A stretch of DNA of 64,000 bases from an uncultured virus (IMG/VR IMGVR_UViG_3300042509_001805) (lineage: Duplodnaviria; Heunggongvirae; Uroviricota; Caudoviricetes). The position numbers were made by a program, and so were the translations under genes. Location: positions 1 through 64,000 of the IMG/VR virus record IMGVR_UViG_3300042509_001805; one strand, written 5' to 3'. The notes under the pieces are model-generated. The model was not told the origin of the DNA. It made no database searches and saw only the letters and a list, made by a program, of their open reading frames with translations. Below, in pieces: positions 5,454 through 21,916 of the stretch (position 1 is its first letter; each line of letters opens with the position of its first letter).

Positions 5454-5537
5454 ACGATGAATACCGACGAAACGGTTGGTAGTGTACAGCTGTAAAATAG
5501 TGTACACGCGTATACTAGTCGGGCCGACCCAAATCGT

Positions 5538-5566
5538 CGTAAGTCCTAGAGCCACAAGGACTTATG
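5538..5566. repeat. 29-bp palindromic site, copy 1
   Basis: cgtaagtcct-agagccaca-aggacttatg. Confidence 0.95.
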
Positions 5567-5684
5567 GCAACAGGAAAAATTCTGAAAAAAATTTCTTTTT
5601 TTGTTCTAAAGCTATTGACAGTGTTTTGCCGATATGTATAATAAGGACATGAGAAACAACAACACACAACAAAAGGAAACGAAA

Positions 5685-5819
5685 ATGAACACTGTCAAGA
5701 TTGTCAAGGTTAACACTTGCTGGGGAGCTTACTGGTACACCGTAAAGGTTAACGGAATTGCCGTTGCGAATTGCGGTACATTGTCACACGCTCAAGAAAT
5801 TTCTAAAAAATATTCCTAA
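5685..5819 (+). CDS. small protein, family A-like (44 aa)
   Basis: MNTVKIVKVNTCWGAYWYTVKVNGIAVANCGTLSHAQEISKKYS; promoter and RBS. Confidence 0.75.
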   Translation: MNTVKIVKVNTCWGAYWYTVKVNGIAVANCGTLSHAQEISKKYS

Positions 5820-5886
5820 AGCTATTGACAACCGATTGCCGATAAGTATAATAACAACATACGAAACACAACACAAGGAAACGACA

Positions 5887-6051
5887 ATGGACAGCTTTGA
5901 CAACATTCAGTGCGACGAAATGCCATTCGAACCCAAGCAATCGGACTGGCTGGAGTTTCAAATGTGGCTTGACAGCTTGCCGATTCGCGACGATGAAATC
6001 GGGGTTGAATACGGGCCTATCGAGTTTCCTGCCGATGACCTTCCCTTCTAA
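5887..6051 (+). CDS. small acidic protein ending in DDLPF (family C)
   Basis: ATG after AAGGA RBS; paralog of 11556-11747. Confidence 0.75.
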   Translation: MDSFDNIQCDEMPFEPKQSDWLEFQMWLDSLPIRDDEIGVEYGPIEFPADDLPF

Positions 6052-6166
6052 GGGCTTGACCCACAAGCCTCGCCCAAGTCGCGAGCATAGTTCGCCTCTC
6101 TATTCCAAAAGAGGCTTTTTATACACTAGTGTACAAGCGTACACCTGCCGGGCCGACCCAAATCGC

Positions 6167-6195
6167 CGTAAGTCCTAGAGCGCCAAGGGTTTACG
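6167..6195. repeat. 29-bp palindromic site, copy 2
   Basis: cgtaagtcct-agagcgcca-agggtttacg. Confidence 0.95.
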
Positions 6196-6301
6196 TCAAT
6201 TCAAAAAATTCCTAGAAAAATTTCTTTTTTTCTGCTCAAGTCTATTGACATTTCTAGCCGATACTGTATAATAGAAGCATAACACAACAAGGAAAATAAA
6301 A

Positions 6302-6478
6302 ATGACTATCTCAATTATCCCCCACGAAGCAACTAGCGGCTACGGCTTTCATTACACTGTAGAAATCGCCGGTTCGGTTGTTGCAATCTGCGGAACTCTG
6401 CATCATGCTCGCAAAGTTGCTGACGAAAAAAGAAAAGAATATCTCAAAAATTTGATTGATGGTATTGACAGTTTGTAA
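6302..6478 (+). CDS. small protein, family A-like (58 aa)
   Basis: Manual translation ...FHYTVEIAGSVVAICGTLHHARKV..., similar to 5685; promoter 6245. Confidence 0.75.
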   Translation: MTISIIPHEATSGYGFHYTVEIAGSVVAICGTLHHARKVADEKRKEYLKNLIDGIDSL

Positions 6479-6517
6479 CCGATAAGTATAATAAGAACAC
6501 ACACAAAGGAAAAAAAC

Positions 6518-6718
6518 ATGAAAACAGAACTACTCAAAAAAGCCGCTATTGCTCACCTTCCGCACGTTACTGATTACAAGTTGATTAACGAATTGCAACA
6601 ACGAATTGTGGCTGATATTGTAGGTCATGAAAATGGTCGCGGTTGTTTGAGCAGTGAATACATTTCCAAACTGAACGCATTAAATGATGCAATCAACGCG
6701 GTTAAGGTTCACTGGTAA
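6518..6718 (+). CDS. hypothetical protein
   Basis: Promoter 6465 and RBS. Confidence 0.7.
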   Translation: MKTELLKKAAIAHLPHVTDYKLINELQQRIVADIVGHENGRGCLSSEYISKLNALNDAINAVKVHW

Positions 6719-6772
6719 TAATTTTACAATAATTATAAATACAACACACACACACACACAAGGAAACGAAAA

Positions 6773-6907
6773 ATGAAAATTTACATTGCAATCGAAGCGG
6801 ATAAGGGTCTTGGGCAAACCATGATTCGAGCTTTTTATAACAAAGAAGAAGCTGAAAAATTCGCAAAAGAAAATCGTTATTGGATTGAAGAAGTTGAATT
6901 GTCGTAA
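6773..6907 (+). CDS. small hypothetical protein (44 aa)
   Basis: MKIYIAIEADKGLGQTMIRAFYNKEEAEKFAKENRYWIEEVELS after a (CA)n-AAGGA leader. Confidence 0.7.
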   Translation: MKIYIAIEADKGLGQTMIRAFYNKEEAEKFAKENRYWIEEVELS

Positions 6908-6920
6908 CGAAAGGAAAATT

Positions 6921-7100
6921 ATGTTCGACCGTTTTGCCGTTGCCGTTTTTTTAATGGATTATCATAGTGGCCAGTGGAGCCGAGGCTATCGCATTCTATC
7001 CAAAATGCGGCCCGAAAATTTCTCCTCTGATTTCTGTGAAGAAATGCGGAACACCGAATATTACGCTCACCTAGTTGCAAATTATGAAAACGAAGTATAA
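6921..7100 (+). CDS. hypothetical protein
   Basis: ATG after AAGGA RBS. Confidence 0.7.
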   Translation: MFDRFAVAVFLMDYHSGQWSRGYRILSKMRPENFSSDFCEEMRNTEYYAHLVANYENEV

Positions 7101-7112
7101 GGAAAAATTATA

Positions 7113-7439
7113 ATGTTTACACGCGCCCAATATCTTGCCGGTGAATGTTCGCACCAAGAATATTACGGTCAATTTGTTAATCAGTGGATTCTTACTTGCG
7201 TAAAGGGAAAATATGGAGTTAATCGATTAATTGAAGCTGAAAAGCTTGATATTAATTTTAACACTATCCCATTGTATTCATGGGACCAACTGAATATAAT
7301 GTCGGCAGTTGACCAAGAACTTTGGGCTGCTGCTAATGGTTCACGATATTACAGCCTATCTGATAATCTTTGCATCCAAAAACAAGCTGCTCGAATGATT
7401 GTAGAAAAATATCATAGTGAACAAAACGCCACTGTCTGA
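7113..7439 (+). CDS. hypothetical protein
   Basis: AAGGA RBS; 108 aa. Confidence 0.7.
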   Translation: MFTRAQYLAGECSHQEYYGQFVNQWILTCVKGKYGVNRLIEAEKLDINFNTIPLYSWDQLNIMSAVDQELWAAANGSRYYSLSDNLCIQKQAARMIVEKYHSEQNATV

Positions 7440-7471
7440 CCCTATGTAAACAGACTGCGCAAAACAACCGC

Positions 7472-7553
7472 CCTAAGTGCTAGAGCCACAAGGACTTAGG
7501 TCAACGCGGGCCGCCGCCGTAAGTCGCAAGTCCTAGAGCCGCAAGGGTTTACG
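7472..7553. repeat. 29-bp palindromic site, copies 3 (7472-7500) and 4 (7525-7553)
   Basis: cctaagtgct-agagccaca-aggacttagg and cgcaagtcct-agagccgca-agggtttacg; extra half-site cgtaagt at 7518. Confidence 0.9.
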
Positions 7554-7566
7554 TCAATTCTCTAGA

Positions 7567-7581
7567 GCAATCGTCATGCCA
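7567..7581 (-). promoter_or_regulatory. sigma54-type -24/-12 motif
   Basis: Minus strand TGGCATGACGATTGC (GG-N10-GC). Confidence 0.6.
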
Positions 7582-7732
7582 ATCGGCAAGTGAACAAAGA
7601 TTGTACATGCCAATGAGCAGAATCTATGCAGCCAATGAGCAGTTTCTGTACACCCAGCAACGCTGCTTAAATTTTAGGCACGAAAACCGCGTGTTTTGAG
7701 CAGGAAAAAAATTCTGTGCTTAATTTTTGACT

Positions 7733-7747
7733 TGGCACGGGATTCGC
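7733..7747 (+). promoter_or_regulatory. sigma54-type -24/-12 motif
   Basis: TGGCACGGGATTCGC (GG-N10-GC). Confidence 0.5.
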
Positions 7748-7879
7748 TCTATATAGTGGTATGGAAAGTAAAAATCAAAAACAGAAACTTGCTGGGGAAA
7801 GAAAAGTTTCTGCTAAAGATTTAGCTTGACAATGACGATAAATATGGTATAATAGAGTAATAAGAATTAAGGAAAAAAA

Positions 7880-8080
7880 ATGAAAATTCTAAAAAGTAAA
7901 ATCACAAAATTTGGTGCAAAAGTTAACCTAGTCGATGGTGGCGAAGGTACAAAACAATTCTTTGCACTGTCAAAACGTTATTGGATTTCTTATGGTGAAT
8001 CTGCAAGTCCTCAAAATAATTGCAGAAATCGCTCAGATAATCTGAAATATATCGAAAAAAAGTTTCAAGAAATTATCTAA
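7880..8080 (+). CDS. hypothetical protein
   Basis: Promoter 7826 and RBS. Confidence 0.7.
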   Translation: MKILKSKITKFGAKVNLVDGGEGTKQFFALSKRYWISYGESASPQNNCRNRSDNLKYIEKKFQEII

Positions 8081-8142
8081 AGCTCTTGACAACATCTTGT
8101 CGATACTGTATAATAGAATCACACAACACAAAGGAAACGAAA

Positions 8143-8280
8143 ATGATTATCAACGGTTTTAAATTTTATGTTCGTCAACACGATACCGCCGACAAGTATT
8201 ATGTCGCGATGAAGGGCGATGTGGTTCTCACTTCAAAAAGTTTGGATTATCTTGTGAAAAAAGTCAAGAAACACGCTTGA
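8143..8280 (+). CDS. small hypothetical protein
   Basis: Promoter 8086, AAGGA RBS, start re-assigned. Confidence 0.7.
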   Translation: MIINGFKFYVRQHDTADKYYVAMKGDVVLTSKSLDYLVKKVKKHA

Positions 8281-8334
8281 CAACGCCGATAATTACTGTA
8301 TAATAACAACACACAACACAACAAAGGAAAAAAT

Positions 8335-8541
8335 ATGATTGAAAAATTTGATTACAATAGTTATGAAATCGCGACGTTTGTATATGACGGCGACCGCGAA
8401 CGTTTGAAGGAATTGTGGATTGATGTCAACGGCGAATTTATTGGGGCGATTCGATTTCGCTCGATGAAACCATCGCAAGAACAAATCGAACAATACGTTG
8501 ACGAATATCTTTCAGAAATGGCATTGGGATACGAAATATGA
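8335..8541 (+). CDS. small protein, family B
   Basis: LWIDVNGEFIG similar to WYIDANGERVG in 5265. Confidence 0.75.
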   Translation: MIEKFDYNSYEIATFVYDGDRERLKELWIDVNGEFIGAIRFRSMKPSQEQIEQYVDEYLSEMALGYEI

Positions 8542-8711
8542 AAAACGAAATTGAAAGCCTGGAAAGTATGTCGTATGATGAACTACTTCAGGCGGCTATT
8601 GCTCTGCTTGAAAATGCGGTCGAATTACGGGCCGAATTGGATAAAATCAGGGGCATCATCAGATGAACAACTAGTGTACAAGTGTACAGTGGCCGGGCGG
8701 GCCGCAATCGA

Positions 8712-8740
8712 CGTAAGTCCTAGAGCCACAAGGGTTTACG
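8712..8740. repeat. 29-bp palindromic site, copy 5
   Basis: cgtaagtcct-agagccaca-agggtttacg. Confidence 0.95.
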
Positions 8741-8831
8741 TCAACAAAAAAATTTTCCAGAAAATTTCCAGAATTGGGCTCAAGACTCTTGACAAATCCA
8801 GCCGATAGTGTATAATAGAGGCATAAGGAAA

Positions 8832-9002
8832 ATGAAAATGAAAAACGAAATGACAATCACCGAAACCAAAACCAACAAGTCCCTAACCGGTTCTTTTTTC
8901 AAAGTTTACATTAACGGCCAACTGGTGGCAACTCGCACAACCCGCGAAGCCGCTGAAGAAGCTGGAAAAAAAATTCTGGAAAAAAAGGTCTACCGCTCTT
9001 GA
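8832..9002 (+). CDS. small protein, family A
   Basis: FKVYINGQLVATRTTREAAEEAGKKILEKKVYRS, paralog of 5038. Confidence 0.8.
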   Translation: MKMKNEMTITETKTNKSLTGSFFKVYINGQLVATRTTREAAEEAGKKILEKKVYRS

Positions 9003-9069
9003 CAATGGCTGTCGGTTTGGTATAATCAGAGCATAAGTTAATCACACAAACACAAAAGGAAAAAACACA

Positions 9070-9420
9070 ATGAACACTCAACAAGCTATCCGCGAATTTC
9101 AAGCCGCTATCGAATCCGTTATCGAAATCCCAAACAGTTGGTTGCCAACTGAATTGCATGATGACGTTCGTGGTGGTCGCACAATCGAACGTCTCAACGA
9201 ACTACTCGACGAACGCGATGGTATCACCGAACATCGCAAGCTCAAAGCTCTCAAAGCTCGCAACATCGAAAAGTATGCCGCTACAGTTGCAGCCGGTCAA
9301 GAAATTGATTACAATATTGGCGAACGCGACGAATTGCAACTCTATCGTAATGAATGTGCAATGATTGAAGGAATGATTCACGCTGGTCATATCGACCGCG
9401 ACGATTTGGAAGTAGAATAA
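9070..9420 (+). CDS. hypothetical protein
   Basis: Promoter 8999 and RBS. Confidence 0.75.
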   Translation: MNTQQAIREFQAAIESVIEIPNSWLPTELHDDVRGGRTIERLNELLDERDGITEHRKLKALKARNIEKYAATVAAGQEIDYNIGERDELQLYRNECAMIEGMIHAGHIDRDDLEVE

Positions 9421-9617
9421 TGAACAGTAAAAAAATTGCAAAACGGCTTGAAGCAATGGGCTATAAGTTAACCCGCCGATTGAATTATTGGATTGTAAGT
9501 TGTGAGGAATTACCTTGGGATTGGGTATTTACTAACTTAAAAGAAGTTGAGCGTTGGACTCATATCGAAGAAACTGTTGGCGATAGATTTTGCTATCCCG
9601 AACCAGACGAGTGCTAA
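9420..9617 (+). CDS. hypothetical protein
   Basis: Translationally coupled to the previous ORF. Confidence 0.65.
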   Translation: MNSKKIAKRLEAMGYKLTRRLNYWIVSCEELPWDWVFTNLKEVERWTHIEETVGDRFCYPEPDEC

Positions 9618-9772
9618 TGAAATTTTTTAAATCGTTTTTTATAATATTGTGGATGGTTGGGTTTTTGTATTGTAGTATAATGGCTGTTACTTTTCTAATT
9701 CTGGATTTTATAAAATGGTTTTGAACACGCTATAGTGTACAACTGTACAGGTCGGCGGGCGGCCCGGCGAGC

Positions 9773-9801
9773 CGTAAGTCCTAGAGCCTCAAGGGTTTAC
9801 G
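9773..9801. repeat. 29-bp palindromic site, copy 6
   Basis: cgtaagtcct-agagcctca-agggtttacg. Confidence 0.95.
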
Positions 9802-9813
9802 TCTGTCAAGTAG

Positions 9814-9828
9814 GCAAAACCCATGCCA
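9814..9828 (-). promoter_or_regulatory. sigma54-type -24/-12 motif
   Basis: Minus strand TGGCATGGGTTTTGC. Confidence 0.6.
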
Positions 9829-9929
9829 CACAAAAAAGATTTTTTTTCTTATTTTTCTCTCAAGTATCTTGACAACTAGTGCCGATACTGTATAATGAGG
9901 AAGTCAATCACACACACAAGGAAAAAGTC

Positions 9930-10694
9930 ATGCTGAAATTCTCACCTGCTAACGTCAAGATTAAAGCCCTTAAACTCGTCGCCGCACTTGCCAAGTATTT
10001 GCCACGCGGTCGCCGTGTTTATAGTTTCGACTTGCTATCCGGTCATACTTGCCCATTCGCGAAATTATGCCGCAGTAAAGTAAAAATAATCGACGGCAAG
10101 CGTAAAATCTTTGATGGTCCGCATACTCAATTCCGCTGCTTTTCGGCAAGTCAAGAAGCGACATATACAAACGTTTATGAGCTACGCAAACACAATACGG
10201 AAATTCTGACCGCGATGAAAGACAACCAAGAAATTTTTGATATGTTAAATTCTTCTCTGCCCAAAAATGCTGGAGTTGTTCGCATTCACGTTGCGGGAGA
10301 CTTTTTCAATCAAGATTATTTCGACGCTTGGGTGATGGTTGCGATGAACAATCCGAACGTTCTATTTTACGCTTATACAAAAAGCCTGCGTTATTGGGTC
10401 AGCCGCATTGCAGTTATTCCCGCGAATATGATTCTGACCGCAAGCGAAGGCGGAAGCGAAGATAATTTAATTCAAGAATATAATTTGCGGAAAGCTGTCG
10501 TTGTTTACAACGAACAATCAGCCGCTGAACTCGGATTGGAAATTGACCACACCGACGAACATGCCGCCAACCCAGAAACGGCAAACCACGATTTTGCTCT
10601 TCTCATTCACGGTATTCAGCCAGCAGGCAGCGAAGCAGCCGCAGCGATTCGCGAATTGAAAAGGAACGGAGTTGAATTTGCTTATTCACGATAA
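9930..10694 (+). CDS. GP88-family phage protein
   Basis: F.L.SG.TCP.A..C, RIHVAGDFF, FYAYTKS motifs. Confidence 0.75.
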   Translation: MLKFSPANVKIKALKLVAALAKYLPRGRRVYSFDLLSGHTCPFAKLCRSKVKIIDGKRKIFDGPHTQFRCFSASQEATYTNVYELRKHNTEILTAMKDNQEIFDMLNSSLPKNAGVVRIHVAGDFFNQDYFDAWVMVAMNNPNVLFYAYTKSLRYWVSRIAVIPANMILTASEGGSEDNLIQEYNLRKAVVVYNEQSAAELGLEIDHTDEHAANPETANHDFALLIHGIQPAGSEAAAAIRELKRNGVEFAYSR

Positions 10695-10757
10695 GGGGTA
10701 AAACGTGATTTATATTTTGATTGTAGTTATATCGACAATTTTATTTTTAGCACTATC

Positions 10758-11045
10758 ATGGAAAAATTCAGAATGAAAAGTTTGGTTATATTTTCTTACA
10801 AGCAGCCAGTGGATGGTTCGGTTATTCGTTGGGGAATTTTAGAACGCGAACGCGATACTAAAAAAGAACCTTTATCAATCAATTCTTTATGCGGACCTTA
10901 TAGAAAACGCGATGCTAACTTTGAAAGGTCGCAACATCTTGACACTATAAAAACTCGCAACGGAATAAAAACATTTTATCGCGAGCGACAAAATTGGAAA
11001 ATCAAAATTCCATTTGTTGGAAGTATAGTATCGCGATTCGTATAG
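10758..11045 (+). CDS. hypothetical protein
   Basis: ORF in operon. Confidence 0.55.
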   Translation: MEKFRMKSLVIFSYKQPVDGSVIRWGILERERDTKKEPLSINSLCGPYRKRDANFERSQHLDTIKTRNGIKTFYRERQNWKIKIPFVGSIVSRFV

Positions 11046-11082
11046 TGTACACGCGTACAGGGCGCGGGCCGTCCCGCCGCGT

Positions 11083-11111
11083 CGTAAGTCCTAGAGCCAC
11101 AAGCACTTACG
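11083..11111. repeat. 29-bp palindromic site, copy 7
   Basis: cgtaagtcct-agagccaca-agcacttacg. Confidence 0.95.
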
Positions 11112-11123
11112 TCAGTCAAGTAG

Positions 11124-11138
11124 GCAAAGCGTGTGCCA
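11124..11138 (-). promoter_or_regulatory. sigma54-type -24/-12 motif
   Basis: Minus strand TGGCACACGCTTTGC. Confidence 0.65.
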
Positions 11139-11246
11139 GTGAAAAAAAATAAATTTCAAGAATCTTTTTTTATTTTGCTTCAGACTCTTGACAAACCTAG
11201 CCGATATTGTATAATAAGGAAGTCAATCACACAAGCGAGAAAAAAA

Positions 11247-11489
11247 ATGTACAAAGTAGAAATTGCCACTGTTTACGGCCCCTTTTGTGGTCAAGGCGGT
11301 TATGGTACTGAAACCTGCATCGGTTTCGACCGTAGCGTTAAGCGGGCTTTTGCCAAGGCTCGCGGCCAAGGCAGTCACCGCTACGACCGTAGCCAGATTG
11401 TAACCGGCTCGCGTGGTGGCGGCGTTCCCGTTCTGGGTATGGTTCGGATTTCTCACAACGGAAAAATTATTTCCGAAATTTGGGATTGA
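11247..11489 (+). CDS. hypothetical protein
   Basis: Promoter 11188; start re-assigned. Confidence 0.7.
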   Translation: MYKVEIATVYGPFCGQGGYGTETCIGFDRSVKRAFAKARGQGSHRYDRSQIVTGSRGGGVPVLGMVRISHNGKIISEIWD

Positions 11490-11555
11490 CCCCTTGACAG
11501 TTGTTTTTTCTTTGGTATAATCAGCGTATCAGTCACACACTTTGGAGAATTGAAA

Positions 11556-11747
11556 ATGGACAGCTTCAGCACCAACCAACATTCCGACGAATTGGACTAT
11601 CAACCCACCGCTGCCGATTGGAACGAATACCAAGAGTGGTATGACGGCCAAGAGGCTTGCTACCCAGAGGGTGATGACCTCCTCGACAGCGACCCCATCG
11701 ACCTTTACGGTGGCGATGACTCGCACTACTGGCAATACGACGAATAG
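11556..11747 (+). CDS. small acidic protein, family C
   Basis: MDSF...DE....P...DW.E.Q.W.D shared with 5887. Confidence 0.75.
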   Translation: MDSFSTNQHSDELDYQPTAADWNEYQEWYDGQEACYPEGDDLLDSDPIDLYGGDDSHYWQYDE

Positions 11748-11938
11748 GGCTTGACCCGCAAATCCCGCCCAAGTCGCGGGTATGGTATGGGGTCCATTCA
11801 AAAACCCCCTATATTCGGGAAAAGAGGTAGGCGAATTAACGTCAAGGATTTGAGAAGCCTTAGCGGTTCTGTCTTCAGCGGAAAACGGCCTCGAAGTACC
11901 ATATTTCATTTTGACAGGTGAACACCTGTACACATAGT

Positions 11939-12041: not shown

Positions 12042-12057
12042 GCCCGGCCCGCGCCGC

Positions 12058-15423: not shown

Positions 15424-15454
15424 CTAACGTTAAAGAAATAACAAGGAGAAAGTT

Positions 15455-15763
15455 ATGAGCAAATACTTTACAGCAGCAGAAGCAAAGAAATTGGCCGGAA
15501 AATCAGTTGAAGAAAAAGTTGAGCTTTTGTGTGAATCAATCAAGAAAAACGCCAGCGAACGTAAACGTTCATTAATAACTGGTTGGGAGCACAAAGAAGA
15601 CCGAGATTTGTGGATTGATGGTGGATACAGCCGAACAGAAGATTGGGAAAAAGCAAAAAAGATTCTTGAGGCACTTGGTTATAAAGTTACATTTTATTGT
15701 CAAGAGCCCCCATCCGTGTGGGCAATCCCAATCGTTGCTATGTATACCATAATTGAGTGGTAA
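15455..15763 (+). CDS. hypothetical protein
   Basis: AAGGAG RBS. Confidence 0.7.
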   Translation: MSKYFTAAEAKKLAGKSVEEKVELLCESIKKNASERKRSLITGWEHKEDRDLWIDGGYSRTEDWEKAKKILEALGYKVTFYCQEPPSVWAIPIVAMYTIIEW

Positions 15764-15791
15764 CTGACAAACTGCTTCAAAGGAACGTAAC

Positions 15792-15980
15792 GTGAAAATT
15801 TGGTGTGTAGCGTGTTTTTACGAAGTCCAGCGTGATGCCCATTGGCGTTTGGAACTCAGCAATATTTATTTGTTTAGTTCTGCTCAACTGGCAAATAAGT
15901 TTGTTAGGAGTAATTATTACCAAAAAATGAACTACGACGCATTTGAAACTTATGAATCAGAGGTTGACAATGCGGTTTAG
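15792..15980 (+). CDS. hypothetical protein
   Basis: AAGGA RBS, GTG start. Confidence 0.6.
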   Translation: MKIWCVACFYEVQRDAHWRLELSNIYLFSSAQLANKFVRSNYYQKMNYDAFETYESEVDNAV

Positions 15981-16125
15981 TGTGGTATACTTGCGTTATG
16001 AAGATTAAAATCAACAAAGTGGCAACGGGTCACAATCCGCCAGTATTTCGCTGCGGCAAGTGGCAGGATAAGCGTAAACGGCGTGAGCGTACTCGCGCAG
16101 CACAAAGATTAAAGTGGAGTCGGGA

Positions 16126-16386
16126 ATGAGCGTAAAGACTCTTGTTCGTTGTCGCGGATTTACTGAAATTTTTAGCGATAACAAATACACATATATTTAT
16201 CACAATGGTAATATGGGTGACACAGAAAGTCATATTCGCAAAAATTTTGATAGTATGTATTTTGATGGAGCGTACAACAGGCTTGAAAGGCAAGCAAATG
16301 TTATTAAAGATGGCTCGCCTGATTACAGTTTTGTTTTACGTGTTCCTACAAATGTATTTAACGCTTTGATAAAGGAGAACGAATGA
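16126..16386 (+). CDS. hypothetical protein
   Basis: GGAG RBS. Confidence 0.6.
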   Translation: MSVKTLVRCRGFTEIFSDNKYTYIYHNGNMGDTESHIRKNFDSMYFDGAYNRLERQANVIKDGSPDYSFVLRVPTNVFNALIKENE

Positions 16387-16751
16387 TTAAGATTAAAGGT
16401 TTGCCGGAAGGCTATGACATTGTGAGGATTGGCAGGCCAGAGGCTTGCGAATTATTTATAGGTGGCACTGGGATGGTGGAAAGGTCAAGCGGTGATTTGA
16501 TGGCCGCTTGCTACCTCATCGTCCGCAAAATCGAGCGGCCAAAGCAATACAGGCCGTTTGCCAGTGCTGAGGAGTTTAAGCCGCATCGGGATAGGTGGAC
16601 AAGGCGAATCGCATACGACCCACAAGGAAATGATATTTACCCGCCAACACGATACAGCGATTTAGGTTATCACGGGTTCAAATGGCAATGGTGCTTTGAG
16701 AACTTTTCATTTGACGATGGTACCCCATTTGGCGTGGAGGTGAGTGAATGA
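16383..16751 (+). CDS. hypothetical protein, paralog of 39729-40097
   Basis: Shared G.P.GY..VRIGRP, RKIE.PK.YRPFA, PFGVE. Confidence 0.75.
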   Translation: MIKIKGLPEGYDIVRIGRPEACELFIGGTGMVERSSGDLMAACYLIVRKIERPKQYRPFASAEEFKPHRDRWTRRIAYDPQGNDIYPPTRYSDLGYHGFKWQWCFENFSFDDGTPFGVEVSE

Positions 16752-16890
16752 AGGTCTTTGTTGTAATTTGTTTTAAGGTAATTGGCCGCGAACATATTTT
16801 TGTAAATGCCGCCGTTTTCAAAAACTCAAATGACGCATCTACGTTTGGTGCAAATTATGACGATTCAATAGTAATCGAAAGGACTGTATC

Positions 16891-17313
16891 TTGAACGCCA
16901 AAGTTTATATTTACTGGAATTTACATAAGCGTTGTTTCAGTGCAAAACGAAACGGCAAAGTTTTCGCCCACTTCCGAAATGCCAGCATTTTGAATCCTGA
17001 GTTTCGAGTGAGTGCTGCTGGATGCCGCCGTGTTCGTCGCGATGGTCGCAAAAATGTTCATGCCAACATTGTATGCGAATTGGAGAATTTTACAATTCAT
17101 TCAGACAGCAGAATCGCCCCTGTTAGTGACGCTACTGCTGAGTATGCTTACTATAATCCGTATCTTTACGAAACTTTTGTTGACAACGAAGGTGATGCAT
17201 TGTATAATGCACAAAGTGCCGAGTTAACCACTTATGAGCATATGCTCAATTACTATAAAAATTTGAAAGAAAGACAACCCATTATTTACATTACGAAAGA
17301 AGCAAATGACTAA
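16891..17313 (+). CDS. conserved phage hypothetical protein
   Basis: VY.YWNLHK..FS...RV...GRKNVHA...YNPY pattern. Confidence 0.7.
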   Translation: MNAKVYIYWNLHKRCFSAKRNGKVFAHFRNASILNPEFRVSAAGCRRVRRDGRKNVHANIVCELENFTIHSDSRIAPVSDATAEYAYYNPYLYETFVDNEGDALYNAQSAELTTYEHMLNYYKNLKERQPIIYITKEAND

Positions 17314-17500
17314 CGACATTGCAAAAAGATTAGAAAACGACATTGCAAAAAGATTAGAAAAACTCCAAGATGACTTGAACCATCTGGCCGAGAAACTCTC
17401 TGGAGAAGGTCCATCTAGCTATACCGAACGAAAAGAGCGAGCAAAAGAACGACAAGCTTTTGTTAGTGAAATAGAAAGAATGCAAAATGAAAGTGAATAA
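17306..17500 (+). CDS. hypothetical protein with duplicated NDIAKRLE
   Basis: Tandem 24-nt duplication in frame. Confidence 0.6.
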   Translation: MTNDIAKRLENDIAKRLEKLQDDLNHLAEKLSGEGPSSYTERKERAKERQAFVSEIERMQNESE

Positions 17501-17696
17501 GCACAACCGCGACCTAATTATTGCCGAATATATCGACCGTACCATCGATGGAATGGATATTAAAGGACTTATTGAATATGTTCGTGGCGGAATAGAAGCC
17601 GACCTTAAACATTATTCCGATACAGAATTGGAATATGAAATTCTTGACCAATACGATGATTTTCCTTGGTACGATTTTGATTATGCAGATGAATAA
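17487..17696 (+). CDS. hypothetical acidic protein
   Basis: Overlapping coupled ORF. Confidence 0.6.
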   Translation: MKVNKHNRDLIIAEYIDRTIDGMDIKGLIEYVRGGIEADLKHYSDTELEYEILDQYDDFPWYDFDYADE

Positions 17697-17768
17697 AGTA
17701 TAAGGTTTTGGCGGCCCTGTTGGTAGTTTTGTTATTGAATATAAGGAACCTTCATTAGAGAATAAATA

Positions 17769-17978
17769 ATGACCGAAAACCCACTACAACTAGCAACTAA
17801 AAATTGGATAGAAGCAGTCCAGAAGTATTATGAGAATACTCGTAGTAATGAATTGACCCAAATTCATATGAGGGGTTATTTCAGCGGTTGGAGCGAACGC
17901 GAGATTCTGGAATTTGCGAATAAATTGGCTAAAAATGAACAGGACTATCCTTTGTATAGAGAGAACGAGAATAAATAG
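17769..17978 (+). CDS. hypothetical protein
   Basis: ORF ending just before repeat copy 10. Confidence 0.6.
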   Translation: MTENPLQLATKNWIEAVQKYYENTRSNELTQIHMRGYFSGWSEREILEFANKLAKNEQDYPLYRENENK

Positions 17979-17993
17979 GCCCGCCCGCCGAGC

Positions 17994-18022
17994 CCTAAGT
18001 CCTTGTGCCGCTAGGACTTACG
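17994..18022. repeat. 29-bp palindromic site, copy 10 (core inverted)
   Basis: cctaagtcct-tgtgccgct-aggacttacg. Confidence 0.95.
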
Positions 18023-18035
18023 TCAATCAAGCAAA

Positions 18036-18050
18036 GCAACTTTTGTGCCA
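18036..18050 (-). promoter_or_regulatory. sigma54-type -24/-12 motif
   Basis: Minus strand TGGCACAAAAGTTGC. Confidence 0.65.
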
Positions 18051-18202
18051 TTCCCGCTCGGGAAAATTCTAGGCAAACCGCAAAAGTTATTCCCGCTCGG
18101 GACAGAAAACTTTTTTCTTTTTTTTCTCTCAAGCCACTTGACCTTCGCGGTCGATAAAGTATAATGAGAGAGTAAGTCACACACAATGTTTAGGAGTTAG
18201 TT

Positions 18203-19054
18203 ATGCCTCGCCGTGTTGTTAGTTGTCAGTTGCCGCCCGTCAAAACGTGCAAGAATACCAATTGTGCTAGTGTTGCTATTAGCTACGATGGTTTCTGCAA
18301 GTCGCACGCTCCAAGTCGTCGCATTAAGAGCTATAATTCGCGTCCGCGATGTAGTTCACGATGGGCGAATCCTATCGGTATCGAACTCGAAATGATTCAT
18401 CCAGAATCCGCAAGCCGTTTGGCACAAGTTGCCCGCTTTGCATGTACCGATGCCAGTTTACCCTATGGTGGTGCGGAAATCAAGCTGGTGCAAGATGCCA
18501 GTAAGATTACCAATATCGCCGCCGATACTGCTCAACGTGCTGGCCTTGCTGGTGCAAAGGTTAATCGTAGCTGCGGTTTTCATGTTCATATGGGATTGCC
18601 CAATGGTGTCAGCGTTGGATTAGAGCGTCGAAGCGATGCGAACTGGTCAAGCTGTAACGCCCGTTATCGTTTGTGGGCATTGGCAACAAACTTTCAAGAA
18701 TACTTTTTTGATATTGTTCCCAAAACTCGCCGCACGAACCACTATTGCTCGCCGTTGACAAGCGTAACCAATAGTTTACATTCTCACTATGCTTGGCTAT
18801 CTGTTTCGCACCGTGTTCCTACGGTCGAACTACGGATTCATAGCGGAACGGTCAATCCGTGGAAAGTCAAAGGTTGGGTCGAAGTCGCTGTGCGTTTGCG
18901 TGAAATGGTAAACGCCGCGATTCTCGGAACCCAAGGTTGGGATAATCTTCCTAGCAAGAAGTTTGTAGATTATATGGAACCGGGAACACTTGGTTCCAAG
19001 TATTTGCTCGCTCGCGAATGTGCTGGTGGCAAACTGGTAAATTTTGGATTCTAA
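18203..19054 (+). CDS. putative amidoligase (COOH-NH2 ligase, Amidoligase_2-like)
   Basis: IGIELE, DASL..GGAE, VNRSCGFHVH, TVELRIHSGT. Confidence 0.8.
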   Translation: MPRRVVSCQLPPVKTCKNTNCASVAISYDGFCKSHAPSRRIKSYNSRPRCSSRWANPIGIELEMIHPESASRLAQVARFACTDASLPYGGAEIKLVQDASKITNIAADTAQRAGLAGAKVNRSCGFHVHMGLPNGVSVGLERRSDANWSSCNARYRLWALATNFQEYFFDIVPKTRRTNHYCSPLTSVTNSLHSHYAWLSVSHRVPTVELRIHSGTVNPWKVKGWVEVAVRLREMVNAAILGTQGWDNLPSKKFVDYMEPGTLGSKYLLARECAGGKLVNFGF

Positions 19055-19105
19055 TTATCGTTCGATAGAACGTACACACACTCACTTTTTTTGGAGAATT
19101 TTATT

Positions 19106-19972
19106 ATGTGTCGATTGGCTTATATTCCGGGCAACTGCAAAGTAAACCGTACTGATTTGGTGGACCTTTTGCATATGCTGCAAAAGTCGTTTGGTGGCGA
19201 TGGTAACGGATTCGTTGCCGTTGGTCCCAATGGTGAGGAGTTTAGCGAGAAGGGTGTCAAGTTAGACAACGATGCTATCGTTATCAAAACTTGGAAACTT
19301 ATCAAAAAGGGTTGGTCGGTTTACTATCATACTCGCAAGATTAGCGTAGGCTGGAGTAGCGACAAGCAATGCCATCCGCACCGTATCAACGGTGACAAGT
19401 TCAAGGGTTGGCTGTGCCACAATGGAACGTGGAATGATGGAGTACCGCTTGCCAATTATCTTAACTGTGGTAGCGATACCGCTGCTCTTGCTCGATGTAT
19501 CGGCAAGTTTGGTATCGAGGGAGCAGAAAAACGCAATCTGTTTCCCAAGTCGGGCGTGTTTCTTATCTACGGTAGCGAGAATGGCGAATCGCCTATTCAT
19601 CGCGTAGTCAAGAAATCGGGCGACTTGCAATACTGCCCCAAGACTGGTATTTGGGCCAGTGAGTTCGAAAAGGATTGGCCGTACTGGTCGCAGGTTTATA
19701 CCGCAACTGTTGGCAAGCACTTGCTTTGCAAACCAGCCCCACAATATATTTCGCCTGCTCGCGGTAATGGTGGCAAGTTTGTGAGTCGCAAGAATAGCCA
19801 TCCTGATATTATTGATTCAGGAATTCCAGCACCGTGGGACGATGATGACCGAACCGTTGTTGATTCGCGTCGCTCGTTGTCGCAACGATTGTGGCCGCAA
19901 GACCCTACTGAGTACGAACCAGAGCCAGATTGGGAATATCGTGGCGGATACCCACGACGCGATTTGAGTTAG
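19106..19972 (+). CDS. class II glutamine amidotransferase (Ntn hydrolase)
   Basis: Starts MCRL (Cys1); HTR, CHPH, CHNG and SDT motifs. Confidence 0.8.
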   Translation: MCRLAYIPGNCKVNRTDLVDLLHMLQKSFGGDGNGFVAVGPNGEEFSEKGVKLDNDAIVIKTWKLIKKGWSVYYHTRKISVGWSSDKQCHPHRINGDKFKGWLCHNGTWNDGVPLANYLNCGSDTAALARCIGKFGIEGAEKRNLFPKSGVFLIYGSENGESPIHRVVKKSGDLQYCPKTGIWASEFEKDWPYWSQVYTATVGKHLLCKPAPQYISPARGNGGKFVSRKNSHPDIIDSGIPAPWDDDDRTVVDSRRSLSQRLWPQDPTEYEPEPDWEYRGGYPRRDLS

Positions 19973-20024
19973 TGTGTGTGTGTGTTTGTAGGTGAGTTTT
20001 ATCTTTTAACTTTAGGAGTATTTT

Positions 20025-20114
20025 ATGAAGAAGTGTACTGGTTGTGGCCGTCCAATTGAAACTGTTGTTATTCGTCAATGTCCAAAATGCATCAACAATC
20101 GCGCTGGATTATAA
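20025..20114 (+). CDS. 29-aa Zn-finger micropeptide
   Basis: MKKCTGCGRPIETVVIRQCPKCINNRAGL after AGGAG RBS. Confidence 0.6.
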   Translation: MKKCTGCGRPIETVVIRQCPKCINNRAGL

Positions 20115-20205
20115 GTGTGTGTGTGTGTGTGTGATGCCCAACAGCTTGGGGGACGCAAGTCCCCCGGCTGTACGGGTGTACACTACGCGGGCCGCCCCGC
20201 GACGC

Positions 20206-20234
20206 CCTAAGTCCTTGTGGCTCTAAGACTTACG
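20206..20234. repeat. 29-bp palindromic site, copy 11 (core inverted)
   Basis: cctaagtcct-tgtggctct-aagacttacg. Confidence 0.95.
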
Positions 20235-20246
20235 TCAATCCGCTAG

Positions 20247-20261
20247 GCAAACCTCATGCCA
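20247..20261 (-). promoter_or_regulatory. sigma54-type -24/-12 motif
   Basis: Minus strand TGGCATGAGGTTTGC. Confidence 0.65.
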
Positions 20262-20335
20262 AACAAAAACAAAAATCTTTTTTCTTTTTTCCTCAAGATA
20301 CTTGACAAGCAATGCCGATATAGTATAATAAGGAA

Positions 20336-20463
20336 GTGAGCAGTGGCCTGACAAGCAGGTACGACTCTCGACAGTTAAGGACCGGGAAGCTCCGGGCTGA
20401 ACCGTTTCGTAGCGGTTACTGTTGATTGCTGCTGTTGGCGGTGTTCGATTCCCGCCGCTCACA
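20336..20463 (+). ncRNA. tRNA-like RNA with expanded body and its own promoter
   Basis: GTGAGC/GCTCAC-A terminal stem, T-arm GGCGG-TGTTCGATTC-CCGCC, internal hairpins; promoter 20302 and no ORF. Confidence 0.6.
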
Positions 20464-20552
20464 TTTTTTAAAAATTCCGCTTGACATTCGTTGAGCGTAA
20501 CGTATAATTCAAGAGTAACAAGTTCAGTTTTTTTTCACGAAGGGTTTTTACC

Positions 20553-21473
20553 ATGTCTACTGTTTCCCGTTCTAATGTTTCTGCCAACGAAATCTCGGCT
20601 CGCGTTGCCGCTGCTTTCAACTTCACTGTTGACAAGTTCCCGCTTGCTGGCCCAGATGGTCTTCGCACTCCGTGGTACGGTATGTTCCGCTCTGACAACA
20701 ACGAAGTTGTTGGTAACGGTTCTGTAACCTCGCGGTACTGTCCACACCAAACCGAAGACGTTCTCGCACTGGTGGATGCCGCCAGCGAAGCGTTTGAAGG
20801 TGTGGCGAGTGTTGACACCTACTTCCGCGATGGGCATTATGTCGCCATCGAACCAACTCGCGAACAACGTTATGCGATTTTCGGCACTGCCGACAACATC
20901 TTTCCGCGTGTCGTGATTCGTGCGGGTTACGATGGCAAGGCGTTCAACGCCGCGATGGGTTATTACCGCGATGCTTGCCGCAATCTGGCAATCATGCGAC
21001 AAGTTAGCGGAACCACCGTTTCCATCCGCCACACTAGCGGACTGCGAAGCCGCATGGATTCGCTGATTCAAAGCTTTACGAGTCTTCGCGATTCGTGGCA
21101 AATGCTGGCCGCAACTGCGGTTCAGCTTGAATCAACTCGCGTGAATCTTGCGGACTTCCTTCGCGAAGTTTACGGCGAACCCGAAACCGACAGCGGTCGT
21201 GCTGCGACTATCCATCGCAATCGTACCGAAACGATTTTCAATCGTGTGATGGATGAACGTAGCCGCACTGGTCGCGGTGCTATGCCAGCCGATTTCCGCG
21301 TCAGCGGTTGGGAAGCGTTCAACGCTGTGCAGGGATTCGTTCAGCATGAATCAACTCGCAAGAGTTCGGCTCGCGGTGCTGCCGCAACCGGATTTGGTCG
21401 AATCATCGCCGCCGCTAACGATGCTGCGGTTCAACGTGCCGAACGTGCTGCGATGAATCTGCTCGCGGTTTAA
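20553..21473 (+). CDS. DUF932-like phage/plasmid protein
   Basis: G.FRSD....VG..V..RY.P.Q, R..C.N, IRHT and W.AFNAV patterns. Confidence 0.65.
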   Translation: MSTVSRSNVSANEISARVAAAFNFTVDKFPLAGPDGLRTPWYGMFRSDNNEVVGNGSVTSRYCPHQTEDVLALVDAASEAFEGVASVDTYFRDGHYVAIEPTREQRYAIFGTADNIFPRVVIRAGYDGKAFNAAMGYYRDACRNLAIMRQVSGTTVSIRHTSGLRSRMDSLIQSFTSLRDSWQMLAATAVQLESTRVNLADFLREVYGEPETDSGRAATIHRNRTETIFNRVMDERSRTGRGAMPADFRVSGWEAFNAVQGFVQHESTRKSSARGAAATGFGRIIAAANDAAVQRAERAAMNLLAV

Positions 21474-21499
21474 TCTTTCGTGTGTTTCCTTTCGTGTGA

Positions 21500-21533
21500 G
21501 CCAGTGGCGGCATTTTGCCGCCGCTGGTTTTTT
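21500..21533 (+). terminator. intrinsic terminator
   Basis: gccagtggcggca-tttt-gccgccgctggt plus T-run. Confidence 0.75.
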
Positions 21534-21666
21534 TAGATAGGTGTACAATGGTATACATACTAATCGTCATTGTGGCGTGTATTATATTTTTGATGCTGGA
21601 ATTATAATTCCGGTTATACTCTGGCCGCCTAGCGCGGCCTTTTTTATTATACTTTCGGTGAGTTGA

Positions 21667-21695
21667 CGTAAGTCCTTGGGGCTCTAGGAGTTACG
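21667..21695. repeat. 29-bp palindromic site, copy 12 (whole composite element reversed)
   Basis: cgtaagtcct-tggggctct-aggagttacg; the GC tract and TGTACA repeats lie to the right (21696-21740). Confidence 0.95.
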
Positions 21696-21916
21696 ACGCG
21701 CGGGGCCGGGCGGCTTACTGTACATCTGTACACCTGTACGAATTTTCACTATTGACATTCTGTCTCTGCTAAACTATACTGATTTGCTGGGAACTCTTGG
21801 CCGAAATTTGTCTTATCCAAAGTATTAAGATTTGCCCACAACATTTGGTCTGAATTCATATTTTGCTAAAGTGTGGCTTGACATTAGTCGATATGTATTG
21901 TATGATGTTATTGTAT

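Follow-up and report, generated by a model that had tools for sequence, protein, structure and literature searches.

Palindromes upstream of early promoters in an uncultured phage are predicted docking sites for a host IHF-like protein

The early region of an uncultured phage carries 12 copies of a palindrome that we read, with a probability of about 60%, as sites where a host IHF-like protein would dock upstream of promoters, within PeSL-like regulatory cassettes. A search of the window (the whole stretch of DNA analysed, 64,000 bases) for the pattern CGTAAGTCCT-N9-AGGACTTACG, allowing up to three mismatches, returned exactly 12 places with 1–3 mismatches each, and none in 100 dinucleotide shuffles. 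The original prediction had named these 12 positions, seen no copies elsewhere in the window and placed all of them between genes. Each point was borne out: no copies beyond the 12 were found in the 77.5-kb record or in a complete genome (G001, 148,313 bp) that is 100% identical to the window across all 64,000 bases, and 12 of 12 are intergenic relative to RBS-supported gene calls. The features are as follows.

4969..21473, + strand: early-gene array, ~37 small genes and ~26 sigma-70-type promoters (promoter scan, gene calls)
5538..5566, unstranded: dyad 1; next -35 box at 5615
6167..6195, unstranded: dyad 2; next -35 box at 6245
7472..7553, unstranded: double dyad (7472–7500 and 7525–7553), 53 bp from start to start, with a 75% GC spacer
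8712..8740, unstranded: dyad 5; next -35 box at 8789
9773..9801, unstranded: dyad 6, then GGCAAA-N6-TGCCA at 9813; next -35 box at 9869
11083..11111, unstranded: dyad 7, then GGCAAA-N6-TGCCA at 11123; next -35 box at 11188
12058..12086, unstranded: dyad 8; next -35 box at 12123
14619..14647, unstranded: dyad 9, centre inverted relative to its flanks; next -35 box at 14684
17994..18022, unstranded: dyad 10, centre inverted; next -35 box at 18138
20206..20234, unstranded: dyad 11, centre inverted; next -35 box at 20302
21667..21695, unstranded: dyad 12, whole element inverted, with its GC-rich part downstream
21498..21649, + strand: two canonical intrinsic terminators closing the array (stem plus T-tract, at 21498 and 21623)

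In the window phage the palindrome has 10-bp arms and a 9-bp centre; the 11-bp arms around a 7-bp core proposed earlier do not hold, because the 11th bases are unpaired. The repeat unit extends beyond these 29 bp, with a GC-rich stretch (24 nt, 50–88% GC) directly upstream of most copies, a TGTAC-N4-GTACA mini-palindrome farther upstream in five and a GGCAAA-N6-TGCCA motif downstream of four. At 14619, 17994 and 20206 the centre, AGAGCCNCA, is inverted and the flanks are not, while the inverted element at 21667 lies between the array terminators and a promoter at 21752. The double dyad is the sole retained pair in the window and has the architecture typical of the phage family; in lake-metagenome variants (loose ends X18 and X23) a second, distal dyad lies just upstream of 20187. 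Two TTCCCG-N2-CGGGA palindromes were also observed between dyad 10 and its -35 box.

Downstream of every palindrome lies a + strand promoter scoring at least 11/12. Measured from where the 25-bp core ends, the -35 box is 38–78 nt away at nine sites, 117 nt at 17994 and 274 nt at 7525; 7472, the distal dyad of its pair with 7525, was left out of this measurement. The array contains 19 perfect (12/12) TTGACA-16/17-TATAAT promoters, all on the + strand, and seven more at 11/12; promoter-like sites total 68, against 40.3 ± 6.9 in shuffles. The ~26 promoters outnumber the 11 intergenic regions that hold a palindrome, so that some modules are not delimited by one, and equally perfect array promoters exist without a dyad. 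The earlier picture of a palindrome-delimited cassette array stands as regards self-promoted small early genes and only in part as regards the delimiting. Its reshuffling of content between relatives was supported by the comparison with a relative (G003) and the metagenome variants, and its recurring paralogue families of small ORFs by four intra-window pairs with 32–52% identity.

Comparison with related phages identified the conserved unit as a 25-bp dyad, TAAGTCSTT-N7-AASGACTTA, which is kept even in relatives whose neighbouring DUF932 protein is only 54–59% identical. Its arms are kept and its seven central bases vary freely; the profile of 172 half-sites is YAASGACTTACG. The usual arrangement in phages is a pair of dyads 52–53 bp from start to start (~5 helical turns), separated by a 27–28 bp spacer that is 71–96% GC, has no conserved sequence and folds as shuffles do (mean z -0.06, n = 31). 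Some 41 or 51 nt separate the end of the proximal dyad from a -35 box: 26 of 50 proximal or single dyads lie at 38–42 nt (17) or 50–52 nt (9), two classes one helical turn apart, with the remaining 24 distances outside both. Dyads fall inside the early array in 12/12 cases in G001 (within 16 kb), 15/16 in G005 (within 9.5 kb) and 15/15 in G006 (within 8.5 kb). With conserved half-sites, a free centre and a helically phased, fixed promoter distance, the dyads have the marks of a protein site upstream of a promoter, such as an operator or UAS.

The original prediction was an integron- or pdif-like system, in which the palindromes would be the core sites of integron/attC-like or Xer/pdif-like recombination and cassettes would be inserted, excised or inverted by a recombinase encoded elsewhere in the phage genome or borrowed from the host. 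The window phage resembles integron attC arrays and the pdif modules of Acinetobacter in having imperfect inverted repeats that recur between small gene modules; the centre between the inverted arms is asymmetric and is flipped at three sites, the dyad halves differ more than expected by chance, recalling XerC/XerD arms, and the array is hyperplastic. Set against this, a six-frame search of G001, G003 and G005–G009 for tyrosine recombinases (PF00589) returned nothing at E ≤ 1, the family being detected in 14/14 genomes in the control, and a search of G001 and G005–G008 for serine recombinases (PF00239) gave nothing over the cut-off (best 16 bits, in G008, versus 23.3). The recombinase expected elsewhere in the genome was not found for either family in G001, G005 and G006, three complete genomes of this phage family.

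Breakpoints also lie outside the palindromes, contrary to the expectation that gene content would differ exactly there. Nine contig-level joints in lake-metagenome variants have 0/18 ends in a palindrome and two further variant joints 0/2, compared with 10 of the 18 ends within ~30 nt of a promoter core. Rearrangements in the relative and in the variants end in promoters, 5'UTRs and gene ends; they include a joint (side 255) with a 226-nt insert flanked by duplicated promoter copies at 5825–5870, and the joints 6901->8108 (side 129) and 11231->11584 (side 86). Homology blocks shared with G003 are promoter-plus-gene units that start in promoters or A/T tracts and stop at gene ends, and dyad-free units are shuffled as well.

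Integrons are characterised by an IntI tyrosine recombinase, attI and Pc adjoining the array, and mostly promoterless cassettes with an attC hairpin. An integron attC array was rejected given the lack of a PF00589 match, units that bring their own consensus promoters and pairing not above shuffles on either strand. The dif site is 28 bp long, with 11-bp XerC and XerD arms around a 6-bp centre, and occurs once per chromosome; in pdif modules the boundaries fall at the sites. A Xer/dif or pdif site was rejected on arms of 9–10 bp, centres of 7–9 bp, the 0/18 joint ends and 40 copies in the Planctomycetia genome G011; such a number of dyads (~40) at promoters of a putative host-lineage chromosome is unlike the behaviour of dif. 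A serine-recombinase res or inversion site was rejected in G001 and G005–G008, with no PF00239 match over the cut-off. Unlike integrons and pdif modules, then, the window phage has no integrase, self-promoted cassettes, breakpoints off the sites and no hairpin selection, and recombination at the palindromes is highly improbable. The evidence favours instead the alternative named in that prediction, a binding site for a repressor or nucleoid protein. Shuffling of the array would proceed by homologous or short-homology exchange among near-identical promoters and 5'UTRs, rather than by cleavage at the palindromes.

We also considered a function in RNA, with the palindromes folding into hairpins where operons end and serving as factor-dependent terminators, as attenuators, as processing sites or to stabilise 3' ends, in the manner of PeSL stem-loops. 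The palindromes do sit between the last gene of one unit and the next promoter. In the window phage alone they are nearly perfect (42/48 variable cells pair once G·U is counted), which leaves a hairpin role in this lineage some probability, and two G·U pairs form on the + strand in the AGGGTTTACG variant. Across the phages, however, only 177 of 328 cells at variable arm positions pair, versus 189.5 ± 4.7 with arms recombined at random; allowing G·U gives 217, versus 228.4 ± 3.7 in shuffled arm combinations, and the bacterial dyad set gives 79/160, versus 95.9 ± 5.2. Arm covariation was found in none of the six phage sets nor in the bacterial set, pairing being below shuffles, and choosing the better strand never beat the shuffles in any of these seven data sets. 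Mispairs comprise 47 G·U and 52 A·C, and thus have no strand bias, and 42/84 dyads have clashing bases (C·C or G·G) at position 7. The GC-rich segments have predicted folds of -7 to -16.5 kcal/mol, which count in favour of a hairpin and are no more stable than those of shuffles, as is also true of the spacers. Three of the centres are inverted relative to transcription.

An intrinsic terminator was rejected: neither a T-tract nor a + strand terminator call accompanies any of the 12 palindromes, though the canonical terminators at 21498 and 21623 indicate that the window phage does use T-tract terminators. A structured RNA element was likewise rejected, with compensatory change absent, G·U mispairs as frequent as A·C and no family matched in an Rfam search. 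The palindromes are not selected hairpins, and we regard a role as RNA elements as quite unlikely.

Close to the dyad cassettes are the PeSL (promoter-early stem-loop) cassettes described in T4-type phages (Arbiol et al. 2010, PMC2839356; Comeau et al. 2014, PMC4122927). Both systems have strong sigma-70-like early promoters that combine an upstream A/T-rich tract with a G/C-rich element, and in both these promoters cluster ahead of small ORFans in a hyperplastic region where exchanges give indels and replacements. In the window, sigma-70-like promoters with an A/T tract precede ORFans and breaks fall in the cassettes (10/18 ends). PeSL stem-loops, often polyG then polyC, are placed at variable positions in or around the promoter and were shown to terminate transcription (PMC2839356), a point in favour of the hairpin alternative. 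In contrast to PeSL, the window phage family has a sequence-conserved 25-bp dyad, usually doubled at 52–53 bp and at a fixed distance from the -35 box, with arms free of pairing selection. The window phage, which encodes a split Pol III alpha, RecA and two sigma factors, is not evidently T4-like.

The dyad is also found in bacteria. Counts against a reversed-pattern control were 40 versus 0 in G011 and 25 versus 0 in G014 (both metagenome bins), 6 versus 0 and 5 versus 0 in two further genomes (the latter G060), and 43 versus 31 summed over 60 other genomes of the same phylum. The G011 dyads lie on a 6-Mb chromosome contig, and 11 of the 20 loci examined there have the order dyad, 65 bp, dyad, 33 nt, TTGACA-17-TATAAT. 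One such cassette forms the leader of a 61-repeat, type I-E CRISPR array next to cas genes, and no CRISPR spacer of G011 gave a full-length match to the phage; another cassette is ~1.1 kb upstream of a 23S rRNA gene.

In both G011 and G014 the best-scoring PF00216 gene has an upstream dyad pair with a spacing of 63–64 bp, the dyads being at -210/-223 and -273/-287 relative to where the domain match starts. The dyad-poor genomes G010, G013 and G020 have no dyad near either PF00216 gene, and G060 has only one weak, four-mismatch match near a PF00216 gene, at -178. The G011/G014 gene scores 83–89 bits for IHF beta versus 35–45 bits for HU, below the equivalog cut-off of 115. The IHF consensus is WATCAA-N4-TTR with an A/T-rich 5' part, and the CAA-N4-TTR of the half-site we take to be its core. 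Among the 172 halves C is present in 91, AA and TT are nearly invariant and R is present in all 172; WAT is absent and the N4 bases are conserved, whereas in classical IHF sites these four bases are not. The spacing of dyad pairs depends on context: 52–53 bp in phages, 63–64 bp before the IHF-like gene and 90 bp, a non-integer number of helical turns, in the host promoter cassette. The window phage also encodes a DUF1559 pilin-like protein, a family with 27–113 paralogues in four of five bacterial genomes compared and one in G010; its presence would fit a Planctomycetota host, which we infer to be the probable one.

Alternatively, the dyads might be operators bound by a regulator that the phage itself encodes, such as a repressor produced post-infection to shut off early genes. 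In the three complete genomes dyads are confined to the early array, the function of many early ORFs is not known, and multi-copy operator regulons are known from L5 stoperators, P1 C1 and IncP KorB. The abundance of the dyad on the 6-Mb bacterial contig, at host promoters, the CRISPR leader and the IHF-like gene, argues otherwise and implies that the host encodes the binder. Inspection of 138 phage ORFs recognised neither a helix-turn-helix nor an HU-type protein, and a PF00216 search of the phages found no encoded protein. We consider a phage-encoded regulator unlikely.

These data allow us to propose how a host IHF-like protein might act at the dyads. A DNA-binding protein, either dimeric or two-sided, would dock on the dyads as double-stranded DNA; it would most likely be a host protein of the IHF/HU family. 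Each composite regulatory cassette would run from one or two dyads through a GC-rich segment and an A/T-rich tract to a consensus sigma-70-type promoter, with dyad cassettes heading a subset of the early operons. Bent DNA upstream of the promoter may then boost or insulate early transcription, repression being another conceivable direction, and early transcription would rely on host factors alone.

There are precedents for such an arrangement. Phage lambda pL is an IHF-assisted early promoter, and van Rijn et al. reportedly dealt in 1988 with IHF and the Pe early promoter of phage Mu. Like these, the dyad cassettes would place a host DNA-bending protein, at a CAA-N4-TTR core, upstream of an early promoter dependent on host factors. 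Unlike them, the dyad phages have 12–23 predicted sites per genome that are dyad-symmetric, often doubled and conserved in the N4 bases. FIS upstream activating sites and the UP element at rRNA P1 promoters are a further case of phased nucleoid-protein sites. There too the sites, putative in our case, precede an A/T-rich, UP-like tract that leads into a near-consensus promoter, and one host dyad cassette is upstream of a 23S rRNA gene; the motif and protein family differ.

More speculatively, a lineage-specific IHF-type regulon could join phage and host, with the 12–23 putative high-affinity dyads of each replicating genome borrowing the factor for early transcription and perhaps drawing it away from the host's type I-E CRISPR leader, decoys that would hinder CRISPR expression or the uptake of spacers. 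One dyad would then serve the host's strongest promoter cassettes (the CRISPR array leader, unknown non-coding RNAs and the IHF-like gene) together with the early promoters of a 150–175-kb phage family. We think this reading as a whole very unlikely.

To our knowledge, very little work has addressed how Planctomycetota and their phages control transcription. Half-site strings searched in the full-text literature gave 15 matches, all of them primers or shRNAs, judged by title; descriptions in other wording would escape such a search. Together these results remove as unsupported the tempting claim of an integron-like system in a phage and place the origin of early-region plasticity at repeated promoters. 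They describe a conserved, phased, paired dyad common to large uncultured freshwater phages and some Planctomycetia genomes, for which a host IHF-like protein is a testable candidate binder. The common promoter-upstream site offers an experimental handle and a possible marker for host assignment; if the regulon linking phage and host were real, the dyad would be a sequence signature assigning uncultured phages to a host lineage.

Allowing up to three mismatches, the pattern CGTAAGTCCT-N9-AGGACTTACG matched the window at exactly the 12 places named in the original prediction (starting at 5538, 6167, 7472, 7525, 8712, 9773, 11083, 12058, 14619, 17994, 20206 and 21667) and at none in 100 dinucleotide shuffles of the window, so the palindromes are real and non-random. 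A 77.5-kb virus record begins with the window, and a complete 148,313-bp viral contig, G001, contains it at bases 21,855-85,854 with 100% identity. The whole G001 genome holds the same 12 copies only, all inside 16 kb; the proposed absence of further copies in the window holds and extends to the full genome. Each palindrome lies between genes, as was also proposed, and is 5' of a + strand promoter. This 4.9-21.5 kb region is an early-type array, in which 19 perfect TTGACA-16/17-TATAAT promoters and seven more matching at 11/12, all on the + strand, drive ~37 small genes whose ribosome-binding sites are of the AAGGA type. No GenBank phage matched the array by megablast. Features of the array and of the sequence beyond it are listed here in window coordinates.

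Features in and beyond the early-gene array
7554-7825: stretch of ~270 nt directly after the double dyad, without a strong promoter; contains TGTACA motifs and repeated TGCCAAT/GAGCA-type words
13150-13211 (+): match to the Pistol self-cleaving ribozyme, RF02679 (Rfam 47.7 bits, gathering score 34.5, E 4e-6), inside the array between two small early genes
18040-18110: two TTCCCG-N2-CGGGA palindromes, between dyad 17994 and the promoter of an amidoligase-like gene
21498 and 21623: two canonical T-tract terminators, which close the array
21917-21990: one tRNA-Lys gene, directly after the array
37194-38037: eight-gene tRNA cluster
38153-39187 (+): DUF1559 protein with an N-terminal methylation (pilin-like) motif

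The TTCCCG-N2-CGGGA palindromes are also kept in the related phage fragment G003 (near 19200) and, given this conservation, may be a second operator type.

The palindrome is present in only 11 of the ~26 promoter regions of the array, and the repeat is longer than 29 bp. A GC-rich stretch lies immediately upstream of the palindrome, often preceded by a TGTAC-N4-GTACA mini-palindrome, and in four cases a GGCAAA-N6-TGCCA motif follows downstream. Three sites have an inverted 9-bp centre within flanks that are not inverted, while the last site (21667) is inverted as a whole element.

Comparison with related phages defined the conserved unit. G003, a 21-kb fragment with 84% identity to the window in the conserved flank, carries seven sites. 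More distant relatives were reached through the DUF932 gene at the array end (54-59% protein identity), and four of these (L119/G005, L120/G009, L124/G006 and L125/G007) carry 14-22 sites each in the 10 kb upstream of that gene. What is conserved across them is a 25-bp dyad, TAAGTCSTT-N7-AASGACTTA, whose seven central bases are free to vary. The usual layout is two dyads, 52-53 bp start to start, separated by a spacer of 27-28 bp that is 71-96% GC and not conserved in sequence, and followed by an A/T-rich tract and a consensus promoter. In the window a single pair of this kind survives (7472/7525), one partner having been lost at its other sites. In the complete genomes G005 and G006, respectively, 15/16 dyad matches lie inside 9.5 kb and 15/15 inside 8.5 kb adjoining the DUF932 gene. 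For proximal or single dyads, the distance from dyad end to -35 box was 38-42 nt in 17/50 and 50-52 nt in 9/50, two classes one helical turn apart; the remaining 24 were scattered, some of them resting on loosely matched promoters. No dyad was found at up to four mismatches in L121-L123 (57-59% identity in the DUF932 protein), nor in L113, which includes less than 1 kb of array sequence. Viral contigs scanned for exact 14-mers and 18-mers gave mostly chance singletons and one lone look-alike palindrome, in G004.

The palindromes of this phage are nearly perfect (42/48 cells pair with G·U allowed), and for this reason we keep a role as hairpins as a minor alternative, although selection for pairing was not seen when we asked if the arms within a site agree with one another beyond each arm's match to the consensus. 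Against a null in which arms were re-paired at random within each phage (2,000 shuffles), variable arm positions were Watson-Crick in 177/328 cells versus 189.5 +/- 4.7, a count that the shuffles reached in 1,996 of 2,000; with G·U allowed, the values were 217 and 228.4 +/- 3.7. Even when the better strand was chosen per site, pairing never exceeded the shuffles in any of the seven sets (six phage, one bacterial). Equal mispair counts (G·U 47, A·C 52) and the absence of any Rfam match at the dyads (3.5-24 kb of the window, E<=1) likewise weigh against hairpins. In addition, the bases at arm position 7 clash (C·C or G·G) in 42/84 sites, and the GC spacers fold stably, though their shuffled counterparts do equally well (mean z -0.06, n=31). 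A T-tract follows none of the 12 window sites, which also counts against a hairpin role; intrinsic termination was rejected on this ground, though the array has canonical T-tract terminators at 21498 and 21623. RNase III-type processing was judged unlikely because the stems are just 9-10 bp and show no covariation. Since the arms are conserved in sequence, the centre is free, the spacing is fixed and pairing is not selected, the dyads are best read as a double-stranded protein site, and neither as an RNA nor as a single-strand DNA structure. The two halves of the dyads are mildly anti-correlated, which suggests one strong and one weaker half-site.

The original prediction had suggested that the palindromes may be integron- or pdif-like recombination sites, a reading that the recombinase searches do not support. 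Six-frame searches of G001, G005 and G006, each rated 100% complete, found no tyrosine recombinase (PF00589, E<=1) and no serine recombinase (PF00239) above cut-off, while positive controls worked. Pfam searches of 138 of the 156 referable G001 ORFs of at least 80 aa found no site-specific recombinase; the 18 ORFs outside this set (nine named by PHROGs; nine on the opposite strand inside the array), and four further ORFs that crossed block boundaries, are covered by the six-frame searches. Matches in G001 included RecA (with intein), endonuclease VII, ERCC4 and PD-(D/E)XK nucleases, DnaB, primase, a split Pol III alpha and two sigma factors. The RecA gene is split by a LAGLIDADG homing-endonuclease (intein-like) insert (G001 87423-89522; L087:7423-9522), and Pol III alpha is encoded by two ORFs flanking a DUF559/REase-like gene.

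Rearrangements in the array also fall away from the dyads. What is shuffled between the window and G003 is the promoter plus its gene as a block, whether or not a dyad is present: G003 has a homologue of gene 5685 followed by homologues of 8143 and 6518, which in the window are located in two other dyad-bounded stretches, and the module (8838, 9070) lies between two dyads in both. The phage was found in at least 24 lake-water metagenome runs, and contigs from four such runs were placed on the array; as contigs only, they leave rare junctions and circles invisible. Several joints with short sides (22-30 nt) were unreliable and were not relied on.

Structural variants among metagenome contigs
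5825-5870: 226-nt insert between duplicated copies of the promoter; side 255
6901 to 8108: joint removing four genes and the double dyad; side 129
11231 to 11584: joint; side 86
9926 to 7113 and 18132 to 7873: joints of a promoter or 5'UTR to the start of another gene

None of the 18 ends of the nine main joints lies inside a dyad, the nearest being 86 nt off, and 10 lie within ~30 nt of a promoter core. The joints 9926 to 7113 and 18132 to 7873, which are outside these nine, have no end in a dyad and three of four ends within ~30 nt of a promoter core. Shuffling breaks at promoters, and the expectation that gene content would break exactly at the palindromes was not borne out. As described in two studies (PMC2839356; PMC4122927), the PeSL cassettes of T4-type phages combine strong sigma-70-like promoters, A/T-rich upstream tracts and G/C stem-loops, lie in hyperplastic regions, and recombine with one another to shuffle ORFans. 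The same pattern of breaks at promoter cassettes is seen in this phage's array.

The dyad also occurs in bacteria. An exact-dyad scan of one genome per species gave at least 124 loci, among which Planctomycetota stood out; many of those outside this phylum were hairpin terminators beside tRNA genes or mis-binned phage contigs and were not counted. Rfam searches of 20 bacterial dyad loci found nothing relevant. We counted dyads over whole genomes at up to two mismatches, with the reversed pattern as control.

Dyad counts in Planctomycetota genomes
G011 (Planctomycetia, 6-Mb contig): dyad 40, control 0
G014 (Planctomycetaceae): dyad 25, control 0
G010: dyad 6, control 0
G013: dyad 5, control 0
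G012: dyad 2, control 1

Sixty other genomes of the phylum summed to 43 dyads versus 31 controls, with G060 (5 versus 0) and G020 (4 versus 0) standing out. These counts across the phylum point to a lineage-specific motif. In G011, 11/20 loci share a repeated cassette of dyad, 65 bp, dyad, 33 nt and TTGACA-17-TATAAT. One copy serves as leader to a CRISPR array of 61 repeats adjoining type I-E cas genes, another precedes a 23S rRNA gene by ~1.1 kb, and others are located before non-coding stretches. Several cassettes transcribe such stretches (L251, L253, L256, L257, L258, L263), in which a conserved GGTGCATA...GGAATTCCTG word, ~250-330 nt beyond the promoter, is followed by short ~11-nt repeats containing CTGA; this may be an undescribed RNA family. 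Ten further G011 dyads are central in a ~170-nt repeat with inverted ends TTATTGCACC...GGTGCAATAA (L250, L252, L254-L257, L264, L265, L268, L269), possibly a small RNA gene or an element of the MITE type. Dyads of the putative host lineage showed no arm covariation (79/160 versus 95.9 +/- 5.2).

None of the 60 spacers of the G011 type I-E array (L270, G011:C1:1669400-1673200) fully matched the compared phages. A dyad half-site together with its flanks is present in two of the 60, and the end of a third spacer consists of the first bases of one; this hints, suggestively only, that invaders of this bacterium may carry such dyads. Among five Planctomycetota genomes, four carry 27-113 paralogues of the phage DUF1559 protein and G010 carries one; this agrees with a Planctomycetota host and does not identify the host. 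Elsewhere, an archaeal MAG contig (L188, ~190-230) has an exact dyad, apparently within a spacer, adjoining repeats that resemble CRISPR-DR9 (matched weakly in Rfam at 11-46, 83-118 and 154-189), and one Latescibacterota genome has four repeat copies in which 13-17 consecutive C (or G) residues directly adjoin an exact dyad (L163, L165, L169, L171).

A candidate for the binding protein comes from the dyad-rich Planctomycetota genomes. The phages searched lack a PF00216 (IHF/HU family) protein. In G011 a dyad pair with 64-bp spacing (at -223 and -287, counted from where the domain match begins) and then a TTGACT-17-TACACT promoter precede the best-scoring PF00216 gene (IHF-like protein, G011:C1:5648159-5648455); in G014 the best-scoring gene likewise has a pair, spaced 63 bp, at -210 and -273. 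From 40 dyads in 8.2 Mb, we estimate a ~0.5% chance that any one gene has a dyad at most a few hundred bases away. The dyad-poor G010, G013 and G020 have none near PF00216 genes, and G060 has one weak four-mismatch match. Both proteins score 83-89 bits for IHF beta, 58-75 bits for IHF alpha and 35-45 bits for HU, all under the equivalog cut-offs. The 12-bp half-site profile YAASGACTTACG includes CAA-N4-TTR, the central part of the consensus for IHF binding; it lacks WAT, and its N4 bases are conserved. In Escherichia coli, autoregulatory sites precede the IHF genes, IHF sites occur in type I-E CRISPR leaders, and IHF assists early promoters of phages Mu and lambda. We infer that the IHF-like protein of the putative host lineage is a candidate dyad binder. 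A nucleoid-protein or repressor site, the main alternative in the original prediction, fits better than recombination, given the lack of pairing selection, the fixed spacing and the same dyad at bacterial promoters.

Together, these comparisons indicate that the dyads are conserved double-stranded sites in a fixed register upstream of early promoters, common to the phage, to promoters of the putative host lineage and to the IHF-like gene of that lineage. In the mechanism we propose, an IHF-like host protein would bind the dyads and bend the DNA, with the proximal dyad centre near -89 or -99 and the distal centre ~52 bp further upstream. The bent DNA may activate the adjacent promoter or insulate it from upstream read-through and silencing, with repression a further possibility. 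The stiff GC spacer would set the distance between two bound proteins, and the flipped centres may be neutral products of intra-palindrome template switching or may re-orient the stronger half-site. The system consists of PeSL-like early-promoter cassettes with an additional, family-conserved paired dyad. This paired dyad is apparently undescribed and is common to a phage family and a Planctomycetia lineage, and the IHF-like host protein gives a testable candidate for its binder.
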